Positions 17,741 to 57,820 of a stretch of 64,000 bases of DNA are shown here, in pieces. The position numbers and the translations under genes were made by a program. The stretch comes from Rhizophagus irregularis (taxonomy: Eukaryota): NCBI RefSeq assembly GCF_026210795.1, contig NC_089435.1:992001-1056000 (forward strand), read 5' to 3'. A model generated the notes under the pieces. It made no database searches. It saw only the letters and a program-made list of their open reading frames with translations, and was not told the DNA's origin. Each line of letters starts with the position of its first letter. Positions within the stretch are counted from its first letter, which is position 1.

Positions 17741-20602
17741 TCAATCAATTTCATTTTGTTCATTTAATAATGTAAGAATCTTTTTTGCATCATCATTTCC
17801 ACCTTCGGCTGCTTCTTTATATAAATTAAAAGCCCTTTCCTTATCAACATTAACTATAATTCCATTATCATAATAATAACCGAGCTTACATTTTCCATTT
17901 ACACATCCTTCTTCGGCTGCCTGTTTATAATAACCAAATGCTCTAATCTCATTCCTATTTACACCTTTTCCTAATTCATAAATTTCTCCTAATTTATATA
18001 AAGCAAGTTTATCATTTTCTGCTGATCTTTTATACCAATAATTAACCATATTTAAATCATTTACTAGTTTTTCATTATCTTCATACATTAATTTAAGATA
18101 TTCCATTGCATTATTTTTTCCTTTTACAATCGCCTCATCATATAATATCATTCCTTTTTCTTTATCAACTTTTGTTCCAATTCCATTAACATAACAATAT
18201 CCAAGATGAAATTTTGCATTTACATATCCTTTTTCAGCTGATTTCTTATAATATTCAAATGCTTTATTTTTATCTTTTACTGTACCTATTCCTAATTCAT
18301 GACATATACCCATGTTATCACACGTAACTTCATTTTCATTTGTTGCCGCTTTTTGGAACCAATAATTGGCTTTTTCAAAATCTTTTTCAGTTCCTTCTCC
18401 CATAATATATAAAAATCCAAGATTATTTTGTGCATCTATATATCCTTTTTCAGCTGCTCTTTTATATAACTCAAAAGCTTTTATTTCATCTTTTTCAACT
18501 CCTATACCAAATTTATAATGATATCCTAAATTATGTAATGCTAATTCACACCCATTTTCTGCTGCTTCTCTATACCAATAAATAGCTTGTACTAAATCTT
18601 TTTCTGTACCTTCTCCATTTTCATATAAATATCCGATTTTACTTTTTGCAACATTAAGTCCTCTTTCAGCTGCAATTTTATACAATTCAAACGACTTATC
18701 CTTATTAATTTCAGTTCCAATACCTAAATAATAACAATTTCCAAGTTCAAACTGTGCATTTAAGAATCCTTTATCAGACGCCATTTCATAATATTCAAAC
18801 GCTTTTTTTTCATTCTTTTCAACACCAAACCCGTTGTAATAACAGACACCTAAATTATATTGTGCTGCTATAACTCCATTCTCAGCTGCTTTATTATGCC
18901 AGTAAACAGCTTTTTCTGGATCTATTTCTGTTCCTACTCCACTTTGATATAAAATTCCAAGATTACTTTGCCCAATATTATGTCCTCTTTCTGCTGTAAT
19001 TTTATATAATTCAAATGCTTTTGTCTTATCAACTTCAGTTCCAAGTCCTTTATCATAACAATATCCAAGTTCAAATTGAGCTTCTAAATGTCCTTGTTTA
19101 GCTGATTTTTTAAAATATTCAAATGATTTAACATCATCTCTTTTAACACTTATACCATGTTTATAGTAATATGCTAAATTATATTGTGCTATTTTACATC
19201 CATTTTCTGCTGCTTTATTGTACCAATAAATAGCTTTTGCTAAATCTAGTTTTATATATTTACCATTTTTATATAAAGTTCCAAGAGCACTTTGCGCTGC
19301 AGTCTGTCCCTTTTCAGAAGCAATTGTATATAATTTAAATGCTTTAATTAAATTAGTATCAACTCCAATTCCATTTTCATAACAATATCCAAGTTCATAT
19401 TGAGAATCTAAATATCCTTGATTAGCTGATTTTTTAAAATATTCAAATGATTTTTTTTCATTTTCCTCATTTTTATAATGAATACCTAATTTATATTGTG
19501 ATAATTTATTTCCATTTTCAGCTGATTTTTCATACCAATAAATAGATTTTTCTAAATCTTTTTCTATATTTTGATAATAATCACCTAATATATTTTGCGC
19601 TAATGAATATCCTCCTTCAGCAGATTTAAAATACCATTCAAAAGATTCCTTATCATCTTTTTTTATTCCAATTCCATTTTGATAACAAATACCAAGATTA
19701 TATTGTGCATGTATATTCCCTTCATTAGCAGATTTAAAATACCATTCAAATGCTTTCTTTTCATCTTTTATTATTCCAATCCCATTTTGATAACAATAAC
19801 CTAAATTATTTTGTGCATCAATATTTCCTCCTTTTGCTGATTTTAAATAATATTCAAATGATTTAAATAAATCCTTCTTTTTTCCTATACCATATTGATA
19901 ACAATGACCTAAATTATTTAATTCTATTAATTCTTTCTTTTTATCATAATCTATTTGATTTTCATTATTATTATTAGAACAATATTTATTTTTTGATTCA
20001 AAATATTCTTCCATAATATTTATTTCATCCTTACATAAATTTATTTCTAATCCATTAAAATTTTCAAATTGATTATTATATGACATTGTATGTTTCTTTT
20101 CTTCTAAATTTTTAAATTCTTTTATAATCAAATCTCTTTTATTTAAAATAATATCTTTATAATAATAAAATGATAATAAATATTTTGATATAATAATATT
20201 AAGTAATTGATAAATAGAAATTAAATTATTATTAATTTCATCATCATCATCATTATTATTATCATCATCATCATTTTTTTTAGTATATTTATTAATTGAT
20301 AATAAATATAATTTTAAAGATTTATCATCATCATCAAAAAGATTTGATAAATCATTATCATTTATTAAATCATAATCATAAAAAAATCCTATTAAACCTG
20401 AAAACCAATTTTCATTTTCTTCATGATCTTCCATTAATTTTAAAATTTTTTCATGATTTAATTCATTATTAATTAAATAATCTTGTACCCAATCAATTAA
20501 AATATTTTCAAAATTATTATAATTATCTATTTTTATTATTTGACGATAAAATCCTTTTAAAAATTTTTTTAATAAATTATTATTCTCATTATCTAAATTC
20601 AT
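17741..20602 (-). CDS. Sel1-like repeat (SLR) protein, 953 aa, intronless
   Basis: About 20 repeats of consensus AQxNLGxCYxxGIGxxKDxxKAFEWYxKSAxxG after an N/D-rich N-terminal region. Confidence 0.95.
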   Translation of the reverse strand: MNLDNENNNLLKKFLKGFYRQIIKIDNYNNFENILIDWVQDYLINNELNHEKILKLMEDHEENENWFSGLIGFFYDYDLINDNDLSNLFDDDDKSLKLYLLSINKYTKKNDDDDNNNDDDDEINNNLISIYQLLNIIISKYLLSFYYYKDIILNKRDLIIKEFKNLEEKKHTMSYNNQFENFNGLEINLCKDEINIMEEYFESKNKYCSNNNNENQIDYDKKKELIELNNLGHCYQYGIGKKKDLFKSFEYYLKSAKGGNIDAQNNLGYCYQNGIGIIKDEKKAFEWYFKSANEGNIHAQYNLGICYQNGIGIKKDDKESFEWYFKSAEGGYSLAQNILGDYYQNIEKDLEKSIYWYEKSAENGNKLSQYKLGIHYKNEENEKKSFEYFKKSANQGYLDSQYELGYCYENGIGVDTNLIKAFKLYTIASEKGQTAAQSALGTLYKNGKYIKLDLAKAIYWYNKAAENGCKIAQYNLAYYYKHGISVKRDDVKSFEYFKKSAKQGHLEAQFELGYCYDKGLGTEVDKTKAFELYKITAERGHNIGQSNLGILYQSGVGTEIDPEKAVYWHNKAAENGVIAAQYNLGVCYYNGFGVEKNEKKAFEYYEMASDKGFLNAQFELGNCYYLGIGTEINKDKSFELYKIAAERGLNVAKSKIGYLYENGEGTEKDLVQAIYWYREAAENGCELALHNLGYHYKFGIGVEKDEIKAFELYKRAAEKGYIDAQNNLGFLYIMGEGTEKDFEKANYWFQKAATNENEVTCDNMGICHELGIGTVKDKNKAFEYYKKSAEKGYVNAKFHLGYCYVNGIGTKVDKEKGMILYDEAIVKGKNNAMEYLKLMYEDNEKLVNDLNMVNYWYKRSAENDKLALYKLGEIYELGKGVNRNEIRAFGYYKQAAEEGCVNGKCKLGYYYDNGIIVNVDKERAFNLYKEAAEGGNDDAKKILTLLNEQNEID

Positions 20603-21549
20603 TTTATTTTTATTTCGTTTATGAAGAAGTCTTTTAAAAAAGAGGAAGAGAAATAATAGACGTACAAATTAAATTAACGTTACAATTAATAACTAATTAT
20701 AGGAGATTAAAACACTGCGCATAAAGGAAATAATAAATTCGCTATTAACCGCTGTAGCCACTGTCACACTAACTTATAATGGTAATTTGGCGGCTTGGCG
20801 CTTGTTGCTGCGGTATTGCTGCGGTATAATGAGAATTATTTTTAGGATAAACGTTTATCAAAATATGCAAACAGCCATTGCAGCCAGTCACACCAAGACT
20901 GTTGCTGCGGTATTGTTGTTTCACGAATCTGTACATAAATTTTATCAAAGAGAATTACTTTACGTTAATGGTTTTGATTGACGAAGGATTTGCTAAACAA
21001 GTTAAAGGCGGACTTCAATATTTTTATATTATTCATGAGATTAAATATATTTATTGCATATAAATATAATAATTTTATTAAATAAAATTTAAAATGTTTA
21101 TTATACTGCCGTACAGTAAAAAAAAAACTTTTTTATTCTGTCTAGACATAAAATTGAAGTCACATTTATTAATCCAATATGGAAGAATTTTATGCTTACT
21201 GATAATATATTTGAGATTATATAAAAATAAATGATAATCATTTCATTGGAACTTAATAATTACCTAAGATGAAATGATTAACCAGTTACTGCGATTTTGT
21301 AATAATTGATATACATTCCGGTTGTGTAAAATTTGTTTGTCATACAGTATATACATTGCAGAAACTTTTAAAATCGAAACCATATCGTGACCATGTCAAA
21401 ATTTTATCGTAGGAATTATAACCAAGACTTGGTCGCGACATAGTTTCACATTGCCACGATAAGTTTAATATAATCGTATGAGTAAAGTTACTGCATATTA
21501 AGAAAACTGTCGCTGGGTCATACAAGATCGTAAAGTATTAGTAAGCTAA

Positions 21550-26125: not shown

Positions 26126-27760
26126 ATGCCACCAAAAAAACAGGAATAGTATCAAGCAAAAAGGAGATCAGCTTCCAACTACTACTGTATCAACCCGTGG
26201 CCGCAAGAAGAAAGAAGTGTGTCTGTCACTGCTTTATCAACAAAGGTTAATACTACTACACTGAAACATAGTTACAAGAAAAAAGAGCAAGATCATGTAA
26301 TTAATATACTATTGAGAGATGATGACATCGTACCATTACTAGAAGGTGATTATGAACAACCTGCAAATGTATCACTCGTACCATTACTAGAAGGTGATTA
26401 TGAACAACAAATGTATCACTCGTACCATTACTAGAAGGTGATTATGAACAACCTGCAAATGTATTACTCGTACCATTACTAGAAGGTGATTATGAACAAC
26501 CTGCAAATGTATCACTCATACCATTACTAGAAGGTGATTATGAACAACCTGCAAATGTATCACTCGTACCATTACTAGAAGATGATGATGATCAAGGTAA
26601 ATGGTACTCTGATAAATTTTGCGATTTTTGGTACACCTATTAATTATAATTTTTCCTTAGCTTCAAATCATGCATCAAATAACAATGATGAAGATATTAC
26701 AGCCTTTAATTCTTTTAACTACATTAAGAAATGATATTGATTTGTCTCCAAATCATCCATTAAGTGATCATGATGATATTGAGGTTTCAAACATTATTAG
26801 ACATAAAGAGATCACAAAACGAAGCTTAAATCCATTAAGGCTTCCACTGTTAGTTCCAGCATCAAATAATTCAAACATCAATTCAAATAATTTTTCACCA
26901 TTATTATCAACACCAAATAATTCAAACATCAATCATAATAATGTATCAAGTGGTGCCAGCCAATTTGATAGCATTTTTGGGTTAAATGATGGAGCTATCG
27001 ACTCAGTTCATGGTAGTGTACAAATCCTAACATTTTGAAACAGGCTAATAGTATGTATTCATTAATGCAAGTACTAATGGCGGATGGGAGACGATTTACA
27101 ATGCCTATTTCTTCAAACTCATCAACCTCAGTGCATCATCAAGATGACAAAGTAAGTTTTACATAAATTATTAAAATATTTGTCATAGGTGATGGCTCAT
27201 TGTGACTTCTTAGAGGAACTAAAATGTCTGTTCCTATGAGTTCAAAATCCTCCAAGAAGTGCGCTTGAAAATTTGGCACTCCAGATTATTAACTGTGACT
27301 TAAATTCGAATGAAGGAATCAATTGGCTTAAATAGCCAGTAAGTACTTTTGGTGACTTTCGTAACAAGTTGGTCAATAGTATTCAAATTATTCAAAGAAA
27401 ACAATGCACGGTTAGTGGTTTTCACTTTTACTCATGTAAAATTACGATTAACATTTTTACTAATTAATTTTCTTGAGACTACAGGGAATCAATTAATCCG
27501 CAAATGGAAGAGATTGCTGCATTCGTAGATAAGTCTGTAACGGTCCACGTGCTAAACCGATGGTTAAATGCCACAAAAATGGACGAATTACGAGCCAAAA
27601 TTCAATGGTGAATTTGCATAGATTTGTTATAAGAGCTTTTGCCATAAATTATTATCAAGAGACCCAGAAAAAATGAAAGCTTTAAACAATATAACGCGCA
27701 ATATTTCTGTGCCATCACGAAATGGTAAAAATTACGCCAGCAATTTGCAACTTTAATATT
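26126..27760 (+). pseudogene. Degenerate intron-containing gene inside the CACTA-like element (accessory ORF), with a 16-aa repeat
   Basis: MPPKK start, VPLLEGDYEQPANVSL repeats, GT-AG introns (e.g. 26598-26660), and multiple frameshifts and stops. Confidence 0.6.
26328..26590 (+). repeat. 48-bp coding minisatellite, ~5.5 copies
   Basis: Units start at 26328, 26376, 26420, 26468, 26516 and 26564; the second unit lacks CCTG (4-bp frameshift). Confidence 0.95.
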
Positions 27761-28142: not shown

Positions 28143-28395
28143 CATCTTCCCCAGTATCGCCAGAAAATTTTTTCACCCCCACGTGACCCTAAATAATTTG
28201 TCACTTGTGTCACATCCCTCCACTTTCTCATTTTTTATAAGTATTCTGGGGACTTAGATTTTTTTCGGTGTCTAAAATCCTATTCGTCACACGTTATTCG
28301 ACACATGGTTAATTTCTTAATTCCAGCCAAATCTTATAATGCCGGCCAAAGTCACGTGGGGGTGAAAAAATTTTCTGGCGATACTGGGGTAGATG
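28143..28395. mobile_element. 253-bp hAT-like MITE
   Basis: ~44-bp TIR (catcttccccagtatcgccagaaaattttttcacccccacgtgac, one mismatch) and a perfect 8-bp TSD TCCGACAC (28135-28142, 28396-28403). Confidence 0.92.
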
Positions 28396-28617
28396 TCCGA
28401 CACCACGATAGTCACGTGTCTGATACTAGATCGTTGTGATTTATTGGCGATCACTTATGGGTTTCTGCAATGTAATCACCACTTTTGCATATAATACATT
28501 TTGCATAAATATTGTTACCATATTTATTCATACTAATAAAGGCGTTTAATAATAAAAAAAAAAGAAAAAAAGATATTTACTTTATCTTTTTCAATTAGGG
28601 AGAATTTTGATATAGCA

Positions 28618-31600
28618 ATGGGTGGTAAAGGTAAAGCATACAGTATAACATGAATAATAATATAAATTAGATTTATCAAAATTATTAAAACAAATTTGTA
28701 ATGTAATAAAACTAGTTTTGTGTGATACCAAAGAACATATAATATATGAAACAAAATTGAAATATTAAGATTTTTATTTATTAAATAAACTTAATTGGTA
28801 ATAATCAAATATAATTAAACCAAATTTGCAATTTAACAAACTAGTTTCCAGCAATATCAAAGAATTTGAAGAAAGTGGTACTGAAGAATTTGAAAGTAGT
28901 AGTATTGAGAAATTTGAAGGAAGTAACACCAAGGAATCAAAAGGTATATCAAACAAGCTGAAATATTAAGTTTTATTTATAAACAATTCAAATACTACTA
29001 GACTAACTATATTATATAAATATTATATTAAATACTTAGCTTGTAAGTTAATATAATTGAATAAAGATAAATTACTCATTAATTTTATTGTATTTCATAT
29101 AACTAAATAATTTATTAATGATTAATAATACTGTAGTTAGTAAGTTATCGGTTATTTAAATCTTTAGTCCTCTACTTTATTTATTTTACATAACATTCAA
29201 ATAACTAAATTCTTTGTCTATATAACTATTTAATAATTGATTATATTACAGATGGTAAGCTATAGTAATATATATATTATATTTATTTGTTTAATATTTT
29301 ACATAATTCAACTAATTATATTCTTAATTTAATTAACTAGATTGTAAGTAATATATATGATTTACAGTAAATACTTTTATATTATCTTTATATCTAACAA
29401 ATTAATAATTAATACTATAGGGTGTAAGTTATATGATGTCTATATTTATATTATTTATATAATTTAACTAATTTCTTTATTTGAAAAATTATTAAATAAT
29501 ATAGTTCGTAAGTTATTTATTTAATTCTATTATTACTTATTATTATAACATTTACATATAATTTAAACTAACTAATTTCTTTATTTAAAAAATTATTTTG
29601 TAATTATTTTAGTTGGTAAGTTATAAGTTATTTACTTAATTCTATTATTACTTATTGGTTATAATATTTACATATAATTTAAACTAAATAATTTATTTAT
29701 TTTAAAAATTATTTTATAGATAGTAAGTTAATTATTTAATTCTATTATTACTTATTGTTATAATATTTACATATAATTTAAACTAACTAATGTCTTTATT
29801 TAAAAAATTATTAAATAATATAGTTTGTAAGTTATTTATTTAATTATATTATTACTTTTGTTATAATATTTACATATAATTTAAACTAACTAATTAATAT
29901 AGTTTGTAAGTTATTTATTTAATTCTATTATTACTTATTGTTATAATATTTACATATAATTTAAACTAACTAATTTCTTTATTTTAAAAATTATTAAATA
30001 ATATAGGGAGTAAGTTAATTATTTAATTCTATTATTACTTATTGCTATAATATTTACATATAATTTAAACTAACTAATTTCTTTATTTAAAAAATTATTA
30101 AATAATATAGAGAGTAAGTTATTTATTTAATTCTATTATTACCTATTGTTATAATATTTACATATAATTTTAACTAACTAATTTCTTTATTTAAAAAATT
30201 ATTAAATAATATAGTTTGTAAGTTATTTATTTAATTCTATTATTACTTTTGTTATAATATTTACATATAATTTAAACTAACTAATTTCTTTTTTTAAAAA
30301 ATTATTAAATAATATAGCGAGTAAGTTATTTATTTAATTCTATTATTACTTATTGTTATAATATTTACATACAATTTAAACTAACTAATTTCTTTATTTA
30401 AAAAATTATTAAATAATATAGGGAGTAAGTTAATTATTTAATTCTATTATTACTTATTGTTATAATACTTACATATAATTTAAACTAACTAATTTCTTCA
30501 TTTAATTTATTTTAGTGGGTAAGTTATAAGTTATTTATTTAGTTCTATTATTACTTATTGGTTATAATATTTACATATAATTTAAACTAAATAATTTATT
30601 TATTTTAAAAATTATTTTATAGATAGTAAGTTATATATTTAATTCTATTATTACTTATTGTTATAATATTTACATATAATTTAAACTAACTAATTTCTTC
30701 ATTTAAAAAATTATTTTGTAATTTATTTTAGTTGGTAAGTTATAAGTTATTTATTTAATTCTATTATTACTTTTGTTATAATATTTACATATAATTTAAA
30801 CTAACTAATTTCTTTTTTTAAAAATTATTAAATAATAAAGCGAGTAAGTTATTATTTAATTCTATTATCGCTTATTGATATAATATTTACATATAATTTT
30901 AACTAACTAATTTCTTTATTTAAAAAATTATTAATAATATAGGGGGTAAGTTATTTATTTAATTCTATTATTACTTATTGTTATAATATTTACATATAAT
31001 TTAAACTAACTAATTTATTTATTTAAAAAATTATTAAATAATATAGAGAGTAAGTTATTTATTTAATTCTACTATTACTTATTGTTATAATATTTACATA
31101 TAATTTAAACTAACTAATTTTTTCATTTAAAAAATTATTTTGTAATTTATTTTAGTTGGTAAGTTATAAGTTATTTATTTAATTCTATTATTACTTTTGT
31201 TATAATATTTACATATAATTTAAACTAACTAATTTCTTTTTTTAAAAATTATTAAATAATATAGCGAGTAAGTTATTTATTTAATTCTATTATTACTTAT
31301 TGTTATAATATTTACATATAATTTAAACTAACTAATTTCTTTATTTAAAAAATTATTTTGTAATTTACTTTAGTGGGTAAGTTATAAGTTATTTATTTAG
31401 TTCTATTATTACTTATTGGTTATAATATTTACATATAATTTAAACTAAATAATTTATTTATTTTAAAATTATTTTATAGATAGTAAGTTATTTATTTAAT
31501 TCTATTATTACTTATTGTTATAATATTTACATATAATTTAAACTAACTAATTTCTTTATTTAAAAAAATATTTTGTAATTTATTTTAGTTGGTAAGTTAT

Positions 31601-34451
31601 GATAACCCAGAAAATTCTTCTATCACGTGACATGTTTATATTTGGGAAATTGGTTCCTTTTTTGGCTTTTTTGGTGTAATGATATTTTGCATTAATAAGT
31701 TATTTATTTAATTCTACTATTACTTATTGTTATAATATTTACATATAATTTAAACTAACTAATTTCTTCATTTAAAAAATTATTAAATAATACAGTTTGT
31801 AAGTTATTTATTTAATTCTATTATTACTTTTGTTATAATATTTACATATAATTTAAACTAACTAATTTCTTTTTTTAAAAATTATTAAATAACATAGCGA
31901 GTAAGTTATTTATTTAATTCTATTATTACTTTTGTTATAATATTTACATATAATTTAAACTAACTAATTTCTTTATTTAAAAAATTATTTTGTAATTTAT
32001 TTTAGTTGGTAAGTTATAAGTTATTTATTTAATTCTATTATTACTTTTGTTATAATATTTACATATAATTTAAACTAACTAATTTCTTTATTTAAAAATT
32101 ATTAAATAACATAGCGAGTAAGTTTAATATTTATTTAATTCTATTATTACTTATTGTTATAATATTTACATATAATTTAAACTAACTAATTTTTTTATTT
32201 AAAAATTATTAAATTATTAAATAATATAGTGTGTAAGTTATTTATTTAATTCTATTATTACTTATTGTTATAATATTTACATATAATTTAAACTAACTAA
32301 TTTCTTTATTTAAAAATTATTTTATAGATGGTAAGGTTTTTATTTAATTCTATTATTACTTATTGTTATAATATTTACATATAATTTAAACTAACTAATT
32401 TCTTTATTTAAAAAATTATTAAAATTAATATTAGGGGGTAAGTTATTTAATTCTATTATTACTTATTGTTATAATATTTACATATAATTTAAACTAACTA
32501 ATTTTTTTATTTTAAAAATTATTTTGTTATTTATTTTAGTTGGTAAGTTATAAGTTATTTATTAATTCTATTATTAACTTATTGTTATAATATTTACATA
32601 TAATTTAAACTAACTAATTTCTTTATTTATTTAATAGATCGTAAGTTATAAGTTATTTATTTAATTCTATTATTACTTATTGTTATAATGTTTACATATA
32701 ATTTAAACTAACTAATTTCTTTATTTATTTAATAGATCGTAAGTTATAAGTTATTTATTTAATTCTATTATTACTTATTGTTATAATATTTACATATAAT
32801 TTAAACTAACTAATTTCTTTATTTAAAAATTATTTTACAGATGGTAAGTTTTTTATTTAATTCTATTATTATTATTGTTATAACATTTAATATAATTTAA
32901 ACTAACTAATTTCTTTATTTAAAAAATTATTTTTGATCTAGCTTGTAAGTATCTCTATCATTATATATTTTATATAGTATTTATTTGTTAACTGAATTCT
33001 TTCATTTGAAAAATATCTGTTACTTTAGTTGGTAAGTTGTAAAATGTAAATTATAGGTTATTATATGTATTTATCCAAAAATTAAGACTTATATTATATT
33101 ACATTAAATTCCTAATTAAATTTTAGAGTAAGTAATAATTTGTTTTGTGTATATTATAATACAGTCTATAATATCTATAATATAATTTTAATTATTTAAA
33201 TTTATAGATTTGGGAAAAGTAGAAATACAATTATGGATGATTTTATCCTTGAAAAAAGATTAAGATGGATTCCTTATAACAAATTTAAAAATATTGAATA
33301 TTTTAGTGAAGGAGGATTTGGTACTATATACAAAGCTATTTGGTTAAAGAATAATGGAGATGAAGAAGTAATTCTTAAATGTCACAAGAATTTAAATGAA
33401 AATTTAAATGAATTTTTAAAAGAAGTATGATAGTATATTATTTCCATTTTTTAATTTAAATTAAAATTAATAAATTATTATTATTTTTTATAGTGGAAAT
33501 ATCATACAAATGTTTTAAGTTCGAATGATATTATATTTTTTTATGGATTTACAGAAGATCCAAATACTTCAAAATATATGGTAGTAATGGAATATGCAAA
33601 TAAAGGTAATTTAAGAGAAAATTTAACAAGAATAGTCAAAAATAATTGGAATCAAAAATTATATATGTTGTACGAAATTATTTCTGGACTTAGTGAAATA
33701 CATAAAAAAAATCTTATTCATTGTGATTTTCATGATGGTAATATTTTAAATCATAATCATGAGGATAAGGATAAAATTTATGTGTGTGATTTAGGATTAT
33801 GCCAACCTGTAAAATCATTTTTGAAAAAGTATGATGTTTATGGTGTAATGCCATTTATGGCTCCAGAAGTTTTAAGAGGTAAATCTTATACTCCAGCTAG
33901 TGATATATATAGTTTTTCTATGATTATGTGGGAACTTACATCCGGGGTACCACCATTTAATAATAGAGCACATGATATGCAACTTAGTTTTAGTATTTGT
34001 AAAGGTGAACGTCCTGAAATTATTGAAAATACTCCACAATGTTATGTAGATTTAATGAAAGAATGTTGGAATGAAGATTTATCAAAAAGACCATCTTCTA
34101 AAGAAGTATTAAAAATTATTGAAAAATGGATTTTCTGTCCTCCTTATGATGAAATTAATGAAGAATTAAAAAGCAACATTATGGAATTTATAAATGCACC
34201 AATTAGGCAGTATAACAATCTTGTTATTGAATCACATCCACAAGCATGCTATACAAGTCGCTTACTTGATTTTACTAGTAAAAAATTGAATGAAATGATA
34301 GCAAGTGAAGGTTTGAGTGAATATATGGTTAATTCGAAGCCATTAGGTATGTAATATAGTATATAAAGAAAATTAATCTTGCAAATTATTTGTGTGAAAT
34401 TAATTTTATTTAATATTTAATTATTTAGATATTAAAACAGATGAAAATTAA
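28618..34451 (+). CDS. Micro-exon protein kinase (TKL-type), predicted 45 coding exons and 440 aa: 28618-28630, 28845-28943, 39 x 3-nt exons (29040-33031), 1-nt exon 33127, 33208-33424, 33494-34346, 34429-34451
   Basis: All junctions are GT..AG and total coding length is 1323 nt with no internal stop. Protein: MGGKVSSNIKEFEESGTEEFESSSIEKFEGSNTKESK-AFNDWFLDIFWKISRMDIAREIAMDIVSIAMYGVDHHAFE-FGKSRNTIMDDFI..EGGFG..VILK..HCDFHDGNIL..DLG..APE..DIKTDEN*. The kinase part is near-certain; the N-terminal splicing is inferred. Confidence 0.85.
29040..33207 (+). repeat. Tandem array of ~100-110-bp intron + micro-exon units
   Basis: Each unit is GTAAG donor .. AAACTAACTAAT branch-point-like motif .. AG acceptor + 3 variable nt. 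The core (~29460-32940) is highly homogeneous; the flanking units are divergent. Confidence 0.95.
31600..31695. mobile_element. 96-bp foreign insertion in one array intron
   Basis: Splits the usual gtaagtta|taagttattt with an unrelated, GC-richer sequence (tgataacccagaaaattc..gcattaa). Confidence 0.7.
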
Positions 34452-54639: not shown

Positions 54640-55508
54640 TAGAGCTCTGAAACCTGACTCAACAGATCAGGTGACCTGACGAGTTGACCCAAAATATTCA
54701 GGTCAGGTCATCAAATTCATGACCTGATACGGGTCGGGTCAGTGCTGGTCAGTACCCGACCCGACCCATTGACCTGACATATATTTGGGTCAAATAAATT
54801 AAATAACGCCAAAACTTATAATGATTCCAGCGTTTTTACATGTAAAATCAAAAGAAAAATGCCAGAACTAATGATTCTGGCGTTTTTACATGTAAAATCA
54901 AAAAAAAATGCCGAAACTATCAGTTTTGGCATTTTTACATGTAAAATCAAAAGAAAAACACCAGAACTAATGATTCTGGCACTTTTACATGTAAAATCAA
55001 AAAAAAATGCTGAAACTATCAGTTTCGGCATTTTTACATGTAAAATCAAAAGGAAAAATGCCGGAACTAATGATTCTGGCATTTTTACATGTAAAATTGA
55101 AAAAAAAATGCCGAAACTATCAGTTTCGGCATTTTTACATGTAAAATCAAAAAGGAAAAATGCTGGAACTAATGATTCTGGTGTTTTTACATGTAAAATT
55201 GAAAAATAAATGCCAAAACTATCAGTTTCGGCATTTTTACATGTAAAATCAAAAGGAAAAATGCTGAAACAAATAGTTTTGGCATTTTATATAAAAACAA
55301 AAAGTAAAAAACGTTACAAAACATTTTTTTACAATATTTAATAATAAAACTTTGGGTAACCCAAGTTACCTGAAGTGACCTGAATACTTTTAGGTCAAAT
55401 GGGTCGGGTCAGATCAGAACAGTTTACCCGACCCGACCTGACCTGAAAAAAAATTTCGGTTCGGGTTAACCAGGTAACCTGACCTGACCTGGCCCATTCA
55501 GAGCTCTA
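54640..55508. mobile_element. Non-autonomous hAT-like element with an internal palindromic minisatellite
   Basis: TIR TAGAGCTCTGAA/TTCAGAGCTCTA, perfect 8-bp TSD ACAAGTAA (54632-54639, 55509-55516), and ACCCG/ACCTG subterminal repeats. Confidence 0.92.
54805..55290. repeat. ~43-44-bp palindromic tandem repeat with alternating A/B units
   Basis: The TTTTACATGTAAAA palindrome recurs about 10 times, separated alternately by gaactaatgattctgg and aaactatcagtttcgg. Confidence 0.92.
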
Positions 55509-55685: not shown

Positions 55686-57207
55686 TAAAGCTCTGAACAG
55701 TTCGGGCTAAACTGGGGAACCGATCCGAAACTGGCTCAAAATTCGGTTCAGTTCAGTTCGGGTATTAGAACTGAAAAACTGGCGGTTCGGTTCGGTTTAA
55801 TCTGATTTTTATAAAAATGCAAAAAATCGAATAGCCGGCCATCTGGTGATCATATAAAGTCGACCAATATATTATTGGATTTCTCTCGACGAGATGCGTC
55901 GAATGGTGGTAAGATCATGTCTCTAGCATCGATAGATCACACGTTAATCCACGCTAAATGATTTATAAATAATTGGAATTAGAAGGCTATCTATCGGTGC
56001 TAGAGACATGATCTTAGCACCATTCGACGCGTCTCAGTGAGACGAATCCAATGAATATAAATTAGTTCGTGTACGACCACTGGATGGCGAATAATATCAA
56101 GTTTCGCATTTTTTTAAAATTTTCGAGCGTTAAAAATTAAAAATTCCGATACATGAATTTATTCGTCGTCCAATGGTCGTAAAATATGAATTAGGACTCA
56201 TTAGATTCGTCTCGATGAGACGAGTCGAATGGTGGTAAGATCACGTCTCTAGCATCGACAAATAGCTTGCTAATGCCATTTTTTATAAATTATTTAGCGT
56301 GAATTAACATACGATCTATCAATAATAGAGACATGTTCTCACCACCATTCGACTCGTCTCATCGAGACGAATCCAATGAGTCCTAATTCATATTTGTAGG
56401 ACCATTGGACGACGAATAAATTCATGTATCGGAATTTTTAATTTTTAACGCTCGAAAATTTAAAAAAAATGCGAAACTTGATATTATTCGCCATCTAGTG
56501 GTCATACACGAACAAATTTATATTCATTGGATTCATCTCACTTAGACGCGTCGAATGGTGCTAAGATCATGTCTCTAGCACCGATAGATAGCTTGCTAAT
56601 TCCAATTATTGATAAATCATTTAGCGTAGGTTAACATGTGATCTATCGATGCTATAGACATGATCCTACCACCATTCGACTCGTCTCATCGAGACGAATC
56701 TAATGAGTCCTAATTCATATTTGTACGACCATTGGACGACGAATAAATTCATGTATCGGAATTTTTAATTTTAACGCTCGAAAATTTTAAAAAAATGCGA
56801 AACTTGATATTATTCGCCATCCAGTGGTCGTACGCGAACTAATTTATATTCATTGGATTCGTCTCACTGAGACGCGTCGAATGGTGCTAAGATCATGTCT
56901 CTAGCACCGATAGATAGCCTTCTAATTCCAATTATTTATAAATCATTTAGCGTAGGTTAACATGTGATCTATCGATGCTAAAGACATGATTTTACCACCA
57001 TTCGACGCGTCTCGTCGAGACGAATCCAATGATATATGGCTCGACTTTACACGATCACTAGATGGCCGGCTATTCGATTTTTCGCATTTTTATAAAAATC
57101 AGATTAAACCGAACCGAACCGCCGGTTTTTCGGTTTGGTTCTTACGGATTTCGGCTCTAATCCGAACCGTCTATAATCCGGACCAAACCGACCCGTTTGA
57201 TGCTTTA
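55686..57207. mobile_element. hAT-like foldback element built of inverted modules
   Basis: Ends TAAAGC..GCTTTA, 8-bp TSD CCAATGAC/CCTATGAC (7/8), and GGTTC/GAACC subterminal repeats; the interior is largely self-complementary. Confidence 0.85.
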
Positions 57208-57223
57208 CCTATGACATTTTCCC

Positions 57224-57820
57224 TAAAATCAATATAAAAAAAGTGAATTCTGATACTGCAATTCACTTTTTATATATAAAATTGATATAAAAAAGTGAAT
57301 TCTGATACCGCAATTCACTTTTTATATCTAAAATCAATATAAAAAAGTGAATTCTGATACCGCAATTCACTTTTTATATCTAAAATCAATATAAACAAGT
57401 GAATTCCGATACCGCAATTCACTTTTTATATCTAAAATCGATATAAAAAAGTGAATTCCGATACCGCAATTCACTTTTTATATCTAAAATTGATATAAAA
57501 AAGTGAATTCCGATACCGCAATTCACTTTTTATATCTAAAATTGATATAAAAAAGTGAATTCCGATACCGCAATTCACTTTTTATATTTAAAATCGATAT
57601 AAAAAAGTGAATTCTAATACCGCAATTCACTTTTATATCTAAAATCAATATAAAAAAGTGAATTCTGATACCGCAATTCACTTTTTATATCTAAAATCAA
57701 TATAAAAAAGTGAATTCTAATACCGCAATTCATTTTTTATATCTAAAATCAATATAAAAAAGTGAATTCTGATACCGCAATTCACTTTCTATATATAAAA
57801 TTGATATAAAAAAGTGAAAA
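57224..57820. repeat. ~52-54-bp palindromic satellite (atataaaaaagtgaattc(t/c)gataccgcaattcactttttatatctaaaatc), ~11 copies
   Basis: Near-identical tandem units, each a hairpin; degenerate copies also occur at ~53700-53782. Confidence 0.95.

Follow-up and report, generated by a model that had tools for sequence, protein, structure and literature searches.

The stretch of DNA described here (the window) comprises 64,000 nucleotides of the Rhizophagus irregularis assembly GCF_026210795.1 (NC_089435.1, 992,001–1,056,000, forward strand), and all positions below refer to this whole stretch. It hosts the gene of a tyrosine-kinase-like kinase, in which the segment ahead of the kinase domain is encoded by an array of exons of just three bases. 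Between the end of an acidic exon at 28943 and the start of a kinase exon at 33208 there are 41 GT-AG introns, 39 three-base exons and 1 single-base exon. The array introns are 76–112 base pairs (bp) long, except for one of 204 bp that carries an insertion. All array exons are in phase 1, therefore every triplet contributes two bases to one codon and its third to the following one, and when joined in order the exons give an open frame of 40 residues that leads into an intact kinase. These micro-exons are a minority of the coding sequence, 118 bases as opposed to the more than 1,000 that the kinase exons contribute. The parts of the gene are as follows.

28618–28630, forward strand: putative initial coding exon, encoding Met-Gly-Gly-Lys and one base of the next codon (phase 1), with a start predicted from the sequence; paralogue RNA covers 28576–28651 and the public models P0003 and P0022 start alike.
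28716–28742, forward strand: small exon used by paralogues, here without a GT donor at the expected end and probably skipped.
28845–28943, forward strand: acidic exon of 99 nucleotides before the array; RNA loose ends start directly after 28943.
28944–29507, forward strand: 5′ anchor, with introns 1–6 and three-base exons 1–6 (CTT, TTA, ATG, ATT, GGT, TTC); its introns are unlike the core and common to paralogues (sequence, RNA and DNA runs).
29508–32941, forward strand: homogenised core, with introns 7–38 and three-base exons 7–37, delimited by intron comparison.
31600–31695, forward strand: 96-bp insertion in the doubled donor of intron 27, read from the sequence; a target-site duplication is not required.
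32942–33207, forward strand: 3′ anchor, with CTT (32942), TTG (33029), the single-nucleotide exon A (33127) and introns 39–41; RNA loose ends and the joint 33031–33208.
33127–33127, forward strand: exon of a single nucleotide, which brings the reading frame back in register with the kinase, with a canonical AG and GTAAGT around it; joint 33031–33208 in RNA, with one A between in one contig.
33208–33424, forward strand: kinase exon, N-lobe with the glycine-rich loop; RNA joint 33424–33494.
33494–34346, forward strand: kinase exon, catalytic core; profile match to PF07714 with E 5.8e-35.
34429–34451, forward strand: last coding exon and stop; RNA joint, and the same C-terminus in P0124.

The kinase matches PF07714 (PK_Tyr_Ser-Thr) with 121.3 bits, compared with a curated cut-off of 23.1. 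Kinase families alone matched, and the catalytic motifs are present. Its closest relatives are R. irregularis proteins with 82–88% identity, and the family is greatly expanded (869 matches). One public model, P0124 (UZO06736.1, R. irregularis), is identical wherever it uses these kinase exons; it begins at an internal methionine and splices out the catalytic core. The phase-1 array peptide is found in none of the 194 protein models that we retrieved. Eighteen of these models end in the signature that a second donor, four bases past the single-nucleotide exon, would be expected to leave, and six have runs of Gly, Ile, Leu or Met, which by eye we read as arrays translated in phase 0. A protein search with the acidic N-terminus returned four proteins, none of which is a correctly spliced model. 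Public models thus miss or misread the array, and the variable part of these kinases is invisible in the retrieved set. The predicted N-terminus itself is acidic, not hydrophobic. With the small donor-less exon skipped it would begin Met-Gly-Gly-Lys-Val-Ser (28618–28860), which fits what we take to be the MGxxxS myristoylation motif; paralogue models begin otherwise.

An initial annotation of this DNA, made without database searches, described the array as a core of near-identical introns between unique flanks. The core is indeed homogenised, with a mean identity of 0.88 between its introns (range 0.67–0.99, 496 pairs, introns 7–38). It does not start at intron 6, as had been stated; that intron is flank-like (0.72) and its 3′ part alone resembles the core. 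The nine flank introns are at chance level, with an identity of 0.67 among themselves and 0.68 to the core, the value for shuffled introns being 0.69. They are unique within this locus, but the DNA runs that we searched hold many copies that are 90% alike. The 31 exons of the core comprise 11 different triplets and differ from each other at 64% of positions; for the core introns the figure is 7.7% by substitution.

The triplets are tied to the sequence around them. Exons with the same triplet have adjoining half-introns that are more alike than those of exons with different triplets (0 of 10,000 permutations on each side), and this linkage fades at the farther half-introns (54 and 2138 of 10,000 permutations). 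A tree built from 31 exon-centred cassettes groups them by triplet, with clades for ATA, ATC and TTG/TGG that have support of at least 95. The distance between cassettes is unrelated to their separation along the array (Spearman 0.06, p = 0.22), and like cassettes are found at any distance. From the linkage and the tree we take the shuffled unit to be a half-intron, a triplet and a half-intron, with breakpoints that would lie in the near-invariant intron middle. The diagnostic intron variants reported earlier hold up: introns 8, 17 and 25, ahead of the ATA exons at 29720, 30623 and 31480, have both of them, and no other of the 41 does. Likewise, a doubled donor stands behind all eight core TTG/TGG exons (in intron 27 it is split by the insertion at 31600–31695) and, beyond what had been listed, behind both ATC exons. 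The adjacent ATC-ATC duplication consists of exons 98 bp apart in cassettes that differ by 1%, and the peptide repeats MDIAREIA/MDIVSIA/M are as claimed. Exact repeats of 100–140 bp, together with co-varying halves of one intron (Mantel r = 0.22, 18/3000), indicate that some neighbours do move together. The duplication and reordering of exon-centred DNA cassettes within the array is supported by these observations.

The proposal that single codons are added and reordered survives as shuffling of cassettes at the level of DNA, although each exon straddles two codons. Purely local slippage is not supported. The core intron is common to many loci, which calls either for exchange among them or for an ancestral array from which they all descend. 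Two DNA runs contain at least ~580–790 copies of it by summed depth, a rough lower bound and not a true copy number; in the window, near-full-length copies are found inside the array only. A scan of prokaryote genomes for the core-intron pattern gave nothing, and a scan of viral contigs for the three-base-exon pattern gave 14 loci, all of them simple repeats of one triplet. In sum, the earlier observation is partly confirmed and its interpretation partly supported.

Related arrays occur in metagenomes. A pattern of three consecutive three-base exons gave at least 113 loci, and those analysed here are among the matches listed. Visual inspection of the 113 loci led us to retain 32 AT-rich and 4 GC-rich arrays; L031 and L085 were dropped, and the other 75 are mostly short-period repeats. 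The AT-rich arrays have 3–28 candidate exons each, five of the 32 are followed by a related kinase (46–55% identity), and judging from composition and kinase type they probably come from Glomeromycotina. No stop codon occurs at their phase-1 junctions, 0/228 versus 11.8 expected from shuffling within loci (0/5000 shuffles), a count to be read in the knowledge that some loci are related and the junctions not fully independent. This shows selection against stops in the related arrays. Single-skip junctions, on the other hand, would give stops in 9/184. The mean internal identity is 0.85 or more in 7/32 arrays, and triplets are linked to their flanks (p < 0.05) in 5/14 other arrays tested. Five loci have a common intron consensus of their own (0.81–0.89 among themselves, 0.76–0.79 to the core of the window). 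With this consensus, the linkage in other arrays and the many core-intron copies, homogenisation of the introns appears to be lineage-wide rather than a feature of one locus.

Some of the metagenome loci are of interest in their own right. The four GC-rich arrays (L038, L088, L099 and L122; GC content 0.57–0.60) are eukaryotic, with related introns of 83–116 bp and up to 26 candidate exons; they have no stops in 42 junctions, though merely 0.8 would be expected. The array of L071 follows what by eye is a TPR-like exon, and that of L092 precedes a different type of exon.

In the five metagenome loci with a kinase, the array stops just ahead of the segment that leads to a WTSGN-like motif. Among 150 relatives with 202 sites of this kind, a CxxC-CxxC pair lies upstream of 117 sites, in 70 proteins, and it is absent from all 26 models of the subfamily of the window's kinase. 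The place of a small conserved module beside the kinase, one that may bind zinc, is thus occupied by the variable peptide. The commonest residues of the peptide are tryptophan, aspartate, asparagine and glutamate.

Evidence of splicing comes from two poly(A) RNA runs with the same species label, of which roughly one quarter each was mapped on the flanks of the array; every resulting loose end is a consensus of 30 letters in which paralogues are mixed. Behind 28943, 21 reads (run X23) and 2 contigs (run X5) go on with triplets that resemble the first five anchor exons. Both continuations have ATG, ATT and GGT in common at places 3–5, then differ from the window and from each other. Before 33208, 51 and 78 reads give a consensus that ends in the last anchor exons, with an agreement of 0.65–0.66. 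The joint 33031–33208 is present in 2 + 2 reads and one contig. The contig has a single A between the two sides, which fits the single-nucleotide exon at 33127; a paralogue with that A in its next exon would look alike. The RNA of sister genes fixes phase 1, has the anchor exons spliced in order and reveals a variable middle enclosed by conserved anchors, which bears out the earlier suggestion of fixed anchors, here as a comparison between paralogues. The phase-0 reading found in some public models was considered and rejected, as in the RNA the acidic exon runs straight into triplet 1 and no AGTAA extension follows at the end of the array.

Traces of array introns also occur elsewhere. An intron of the core type (compare 32844–32931) flanks a 12-base exon in another locus (runs X5 and X10), thus cassettes do not always hold three bases. 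About 60 reads per RNA run have a 39-base stretch like the intron middle (32893–32931, 29559–29598) in an unrelated transcript, either a chance likeness or a stray copy.

The array is real, it is coding in sister genes and it is shaped by shuffling of cassettes at the DNA level. Our favoured explanation, which we consider probable, is that the pre-kinase segment of this kinase is built from 39 three-base exons and a single-base exon, shuffled as DNA cassettes and spliced in order into a variable peptide that likely tunes binding. Cassettes are likely added, removed and reordered where the introns are nearly invariant, in their middles, through unequal crossover or gene conversion, and exchange would take place both within and between loci. 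Each event would change the length by one residue and recode at most two. The exons of this allele are predicted to splice in order to a 40-residue variable peptide, and this would likely tune the binding of a partner, substrate or ligand. A binding or recognition role for the peptide is a possibility that we hold tentatively, on positional and comparative hints. Polymorphism between strains or nuclei would be expected.

Several results weigh against this explanation. Most mapped RNA reads are 90–95% alike (1472 of 1844 in X23) and so are evidence for sister genes, be they paralogues or other alleles, and not for this allele; no mapped read shows the core of this allele spliced. In no other strain was an allele of the array covered over its whole length, and the small upstream exon at 28716–28742 is without its donor in this copy. 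The recurring blocks of the initial annotation are there (TGG-ATA-TTG twice, TTG-CGA three times, TTT-CGA twice), but their excess over chance is not significant for the triplets alone: by order, repeated pairs number 6 versus 3.1 expected (p = 0.078) and triples 1 versus 0.24 (p = 0.20). Double matches of adjacent cassettes are at best borderline (p = 0.05–1.0 over four thresholds). The open frame of the window is weak evidence by itself, as 44% of shuffled triplet orders are also open, and shuffled orders give peptides that are just as amphipathic as the spliced one (p = 0.43). Among the metagenome arrays, 25/32 have a mean internal identity below 0.85 and 9/14 have no significant linkage between triplets and flanks.

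The lack of an amphipathic excess is what one would find if the array were a neutral minisatellite in a tolerant linker, where the same recombination turns cassettes over and the peptide need only avoid stops. This is the main rival, although on balance we think it somewhat unlikely. It is helped by the observations that 760 of 780 contiguous deletions are stop-free, that a kinase family with 869 matches is greatly expanded and that many related arrays have decayed to an internal identity of 0.64–0.79. It accounts less well for exons whose diversity greatly exceeds that of the surrounding introns (64% versus 7.7%), for anchors conserved between paralogues, for a slot that holds a conserved knuckle in other members of the family and for the retention of dozens of introns per gene across lineages. 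The diversity could instead arise mainly in RNA through the skipping of exons, which has been reported for truffle nank genes, with DNA duplication merely supplying the exons. Every exon is symmetric, and when single exons of the array are left out in turn, a stop arises in just 2 of 39 cases. CTRAY is the branch motif, and 3 of the 32 core introns are without it, exactly those before the ATA exons. The low agreement of the loose ends (0.65–0.8) might be read in the same way, but mixed paralogues explain it equally well. Stops are purged at native neighbours (0/228) and not at single-skip neighbours (9/184). This suggests that selection has favoured splicing in order, and we regard skipping as the chief source of diversity as unlikely. 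Under in-order splicing of shuffled cassettes, skipping may still add a second layer, the introns before the ATA exons being the sole core introns without CTRAY.

Two further explanations concern the array as a whole. Introner-like elements are near-identical introns at unrelated sites in unrelated genes, and a mobile intron of this sort could have been inserted repeatedly into an ordinary coding stretch. The near-identical introns and the several hundred copies or more of the core intron in two DNA runs (a rough figure) are what such an element would leave. It would hardly leave exact three-base spacing in a single phase, variants of the introns that go with the triplet they enclose, and a duplicate right beside its original, and in the window near-full-length copies are confined to the array; we consider the idea very improbable. 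Least credible of all is an assembly artefact or non-coding satellite. The units are tandem and about 100 bp long, no spanning read was seen for the exact unit order, and contigs from the runs do not cross the array. Yet no two of the 41 introns are identical, the longest exact repeat is 140 bp, RNA splices the anchors, related arrays avoid stops, and the same ATC- and TTG-type junctions turn up in two DNA runs from separate studies, along with 5′ flank pieces without differences. One of these runs is possibly related to the source of the window, therefore we do not count the two as independent of it.

The mini-exons of truffle nank genes were reportedly described by Iotti et al. 2012. According to the passages cited, the nank (NACHT-ankyrin) genes of Tuber melanosporum combine codon-sized mini-exons with alternative splicing (PMC4986451, PMC13449251, PMC10197012). 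The array resembles them, as far as those passages go, in its tens of consecutive 3-bp exons, canonical splice sites, expanded fungal family and proposed role in protein diversification, and also in that mini-exons are spliced into mRNA (here anchors and the following triplets, in sister genes). It differs in belonging to a Glomeromycotina tyrosine-kinase-like kinase rather than a NACHT-ankyrin NOD-like receptor (NLR), and in that the diversity, ascribed there to alternative splicing, would here come from duplication of DNA cassettes and in-order splicing. The high-internal-conservation (HIC) repeats of Podospora NLRs, e.g. the WD40 repeats of NWD genes, are described in the cited text as evolving in concert, with repeats gained, lost and shuffled and with unequal crossover and exchange between paralogues as proposed causes (PMC13449251). 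There too, near-identical units have hypervariable positions (here, the introns and exons respectively). In the NLRs of that account the conserved part is a protein repeat (WD40, ANK or TPR), whereas here it is intronic and spliced out, and the variable three bases alone reach the protein. The array thus works like truffle mini-exons and HIC repeats and belongs to neither family.

Other systems share parts of this design. The micro-exon genes (MEGs) of Schistosoma have, in the excerpt cited, short symmetric exons of up to 36 bp and exon duplication, and yield variable secreted or surface proteins (PMC8293314). Runs of short symmetric exons are common to both (here 3 nucleotides, phase 1 on both sides), but micro-exons make up most of the secreted or surface protein in the MEGs of that excerpt and one segment of an intracellular kinase here. 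In brown-algal receptors one unit per exon is reshuffled within and between paralogues, as is the case here; the units in the cited account are whole protein repeats, here they are single residues (PMC13449251). For scale, the figures quoted for the whole Coprinopsis annotation are 27 three-base and 13 one-base exons (PMC12230235), fewer three-base exons than the 39 in this one gene. Our literature search, which left subscription journals and supplements uncovered, came upon no description of arrays of this kind in arbuscular mycorrhizal fungi or their kinases, although genome papers on these fungi might mention them there, and none of DNA-level cassette shuffling.

What we describe is a likely way to diversify a protein residue by residue via recombination, in which the homology for crossover sits in introns and costs the protein nothing. 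The array sits in an expanded kinase family of a model mycorrhizal fungus. How arbuscular mycorrhizal fungi tell self from non-self is, to our knowledge, an open question, and if alleles differ between strains or nuclei these arrays would be concrete candidate loci for such discrimination. A much broader version can be imagined, in which hundreds of interchangeable cassettes would move within and between kinase genes across the genome, with the intron as a disposable recombination handle, and strain- or nucleus-specific peptides would replace the cysteine knuckle and set self/non-self or microbe recognition. We think that genome-wide shuffling of single residues on this scale is unlikely.

Finally, we list some minor features. 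A MITE-like element (miniature inverted-repeat transposable element), with inverted arms of 45 bp that are 98% complementary and 163 bp apart, lies upstream of the kinase at 28143–28395. A likeness between the 96-bp insertion and the upstream inverted repeat was rejected (score 36 versus a background mean of 34). At the metagenome locus L077, unrelated sequence starts a few bases past the donor of the eighth triplet exon, comparable to the insertion in intron 27. By eye, the neighbours in the window include BTB/TLDc-like genes (5220, 58509 and 61012), a Sel1-repeat-like frame of 975 residues (17741–20668), F-box-like genes (41725 and 44708) and another kinase fragment (8627). Other tandem repeats are found at 26328–26595, 54819–55288, 55868–57032 and 57223–57818, with periods of 48, 50/99, 326 and 52 bp, respectively, and the 48-bp repeat is coding in P0122.

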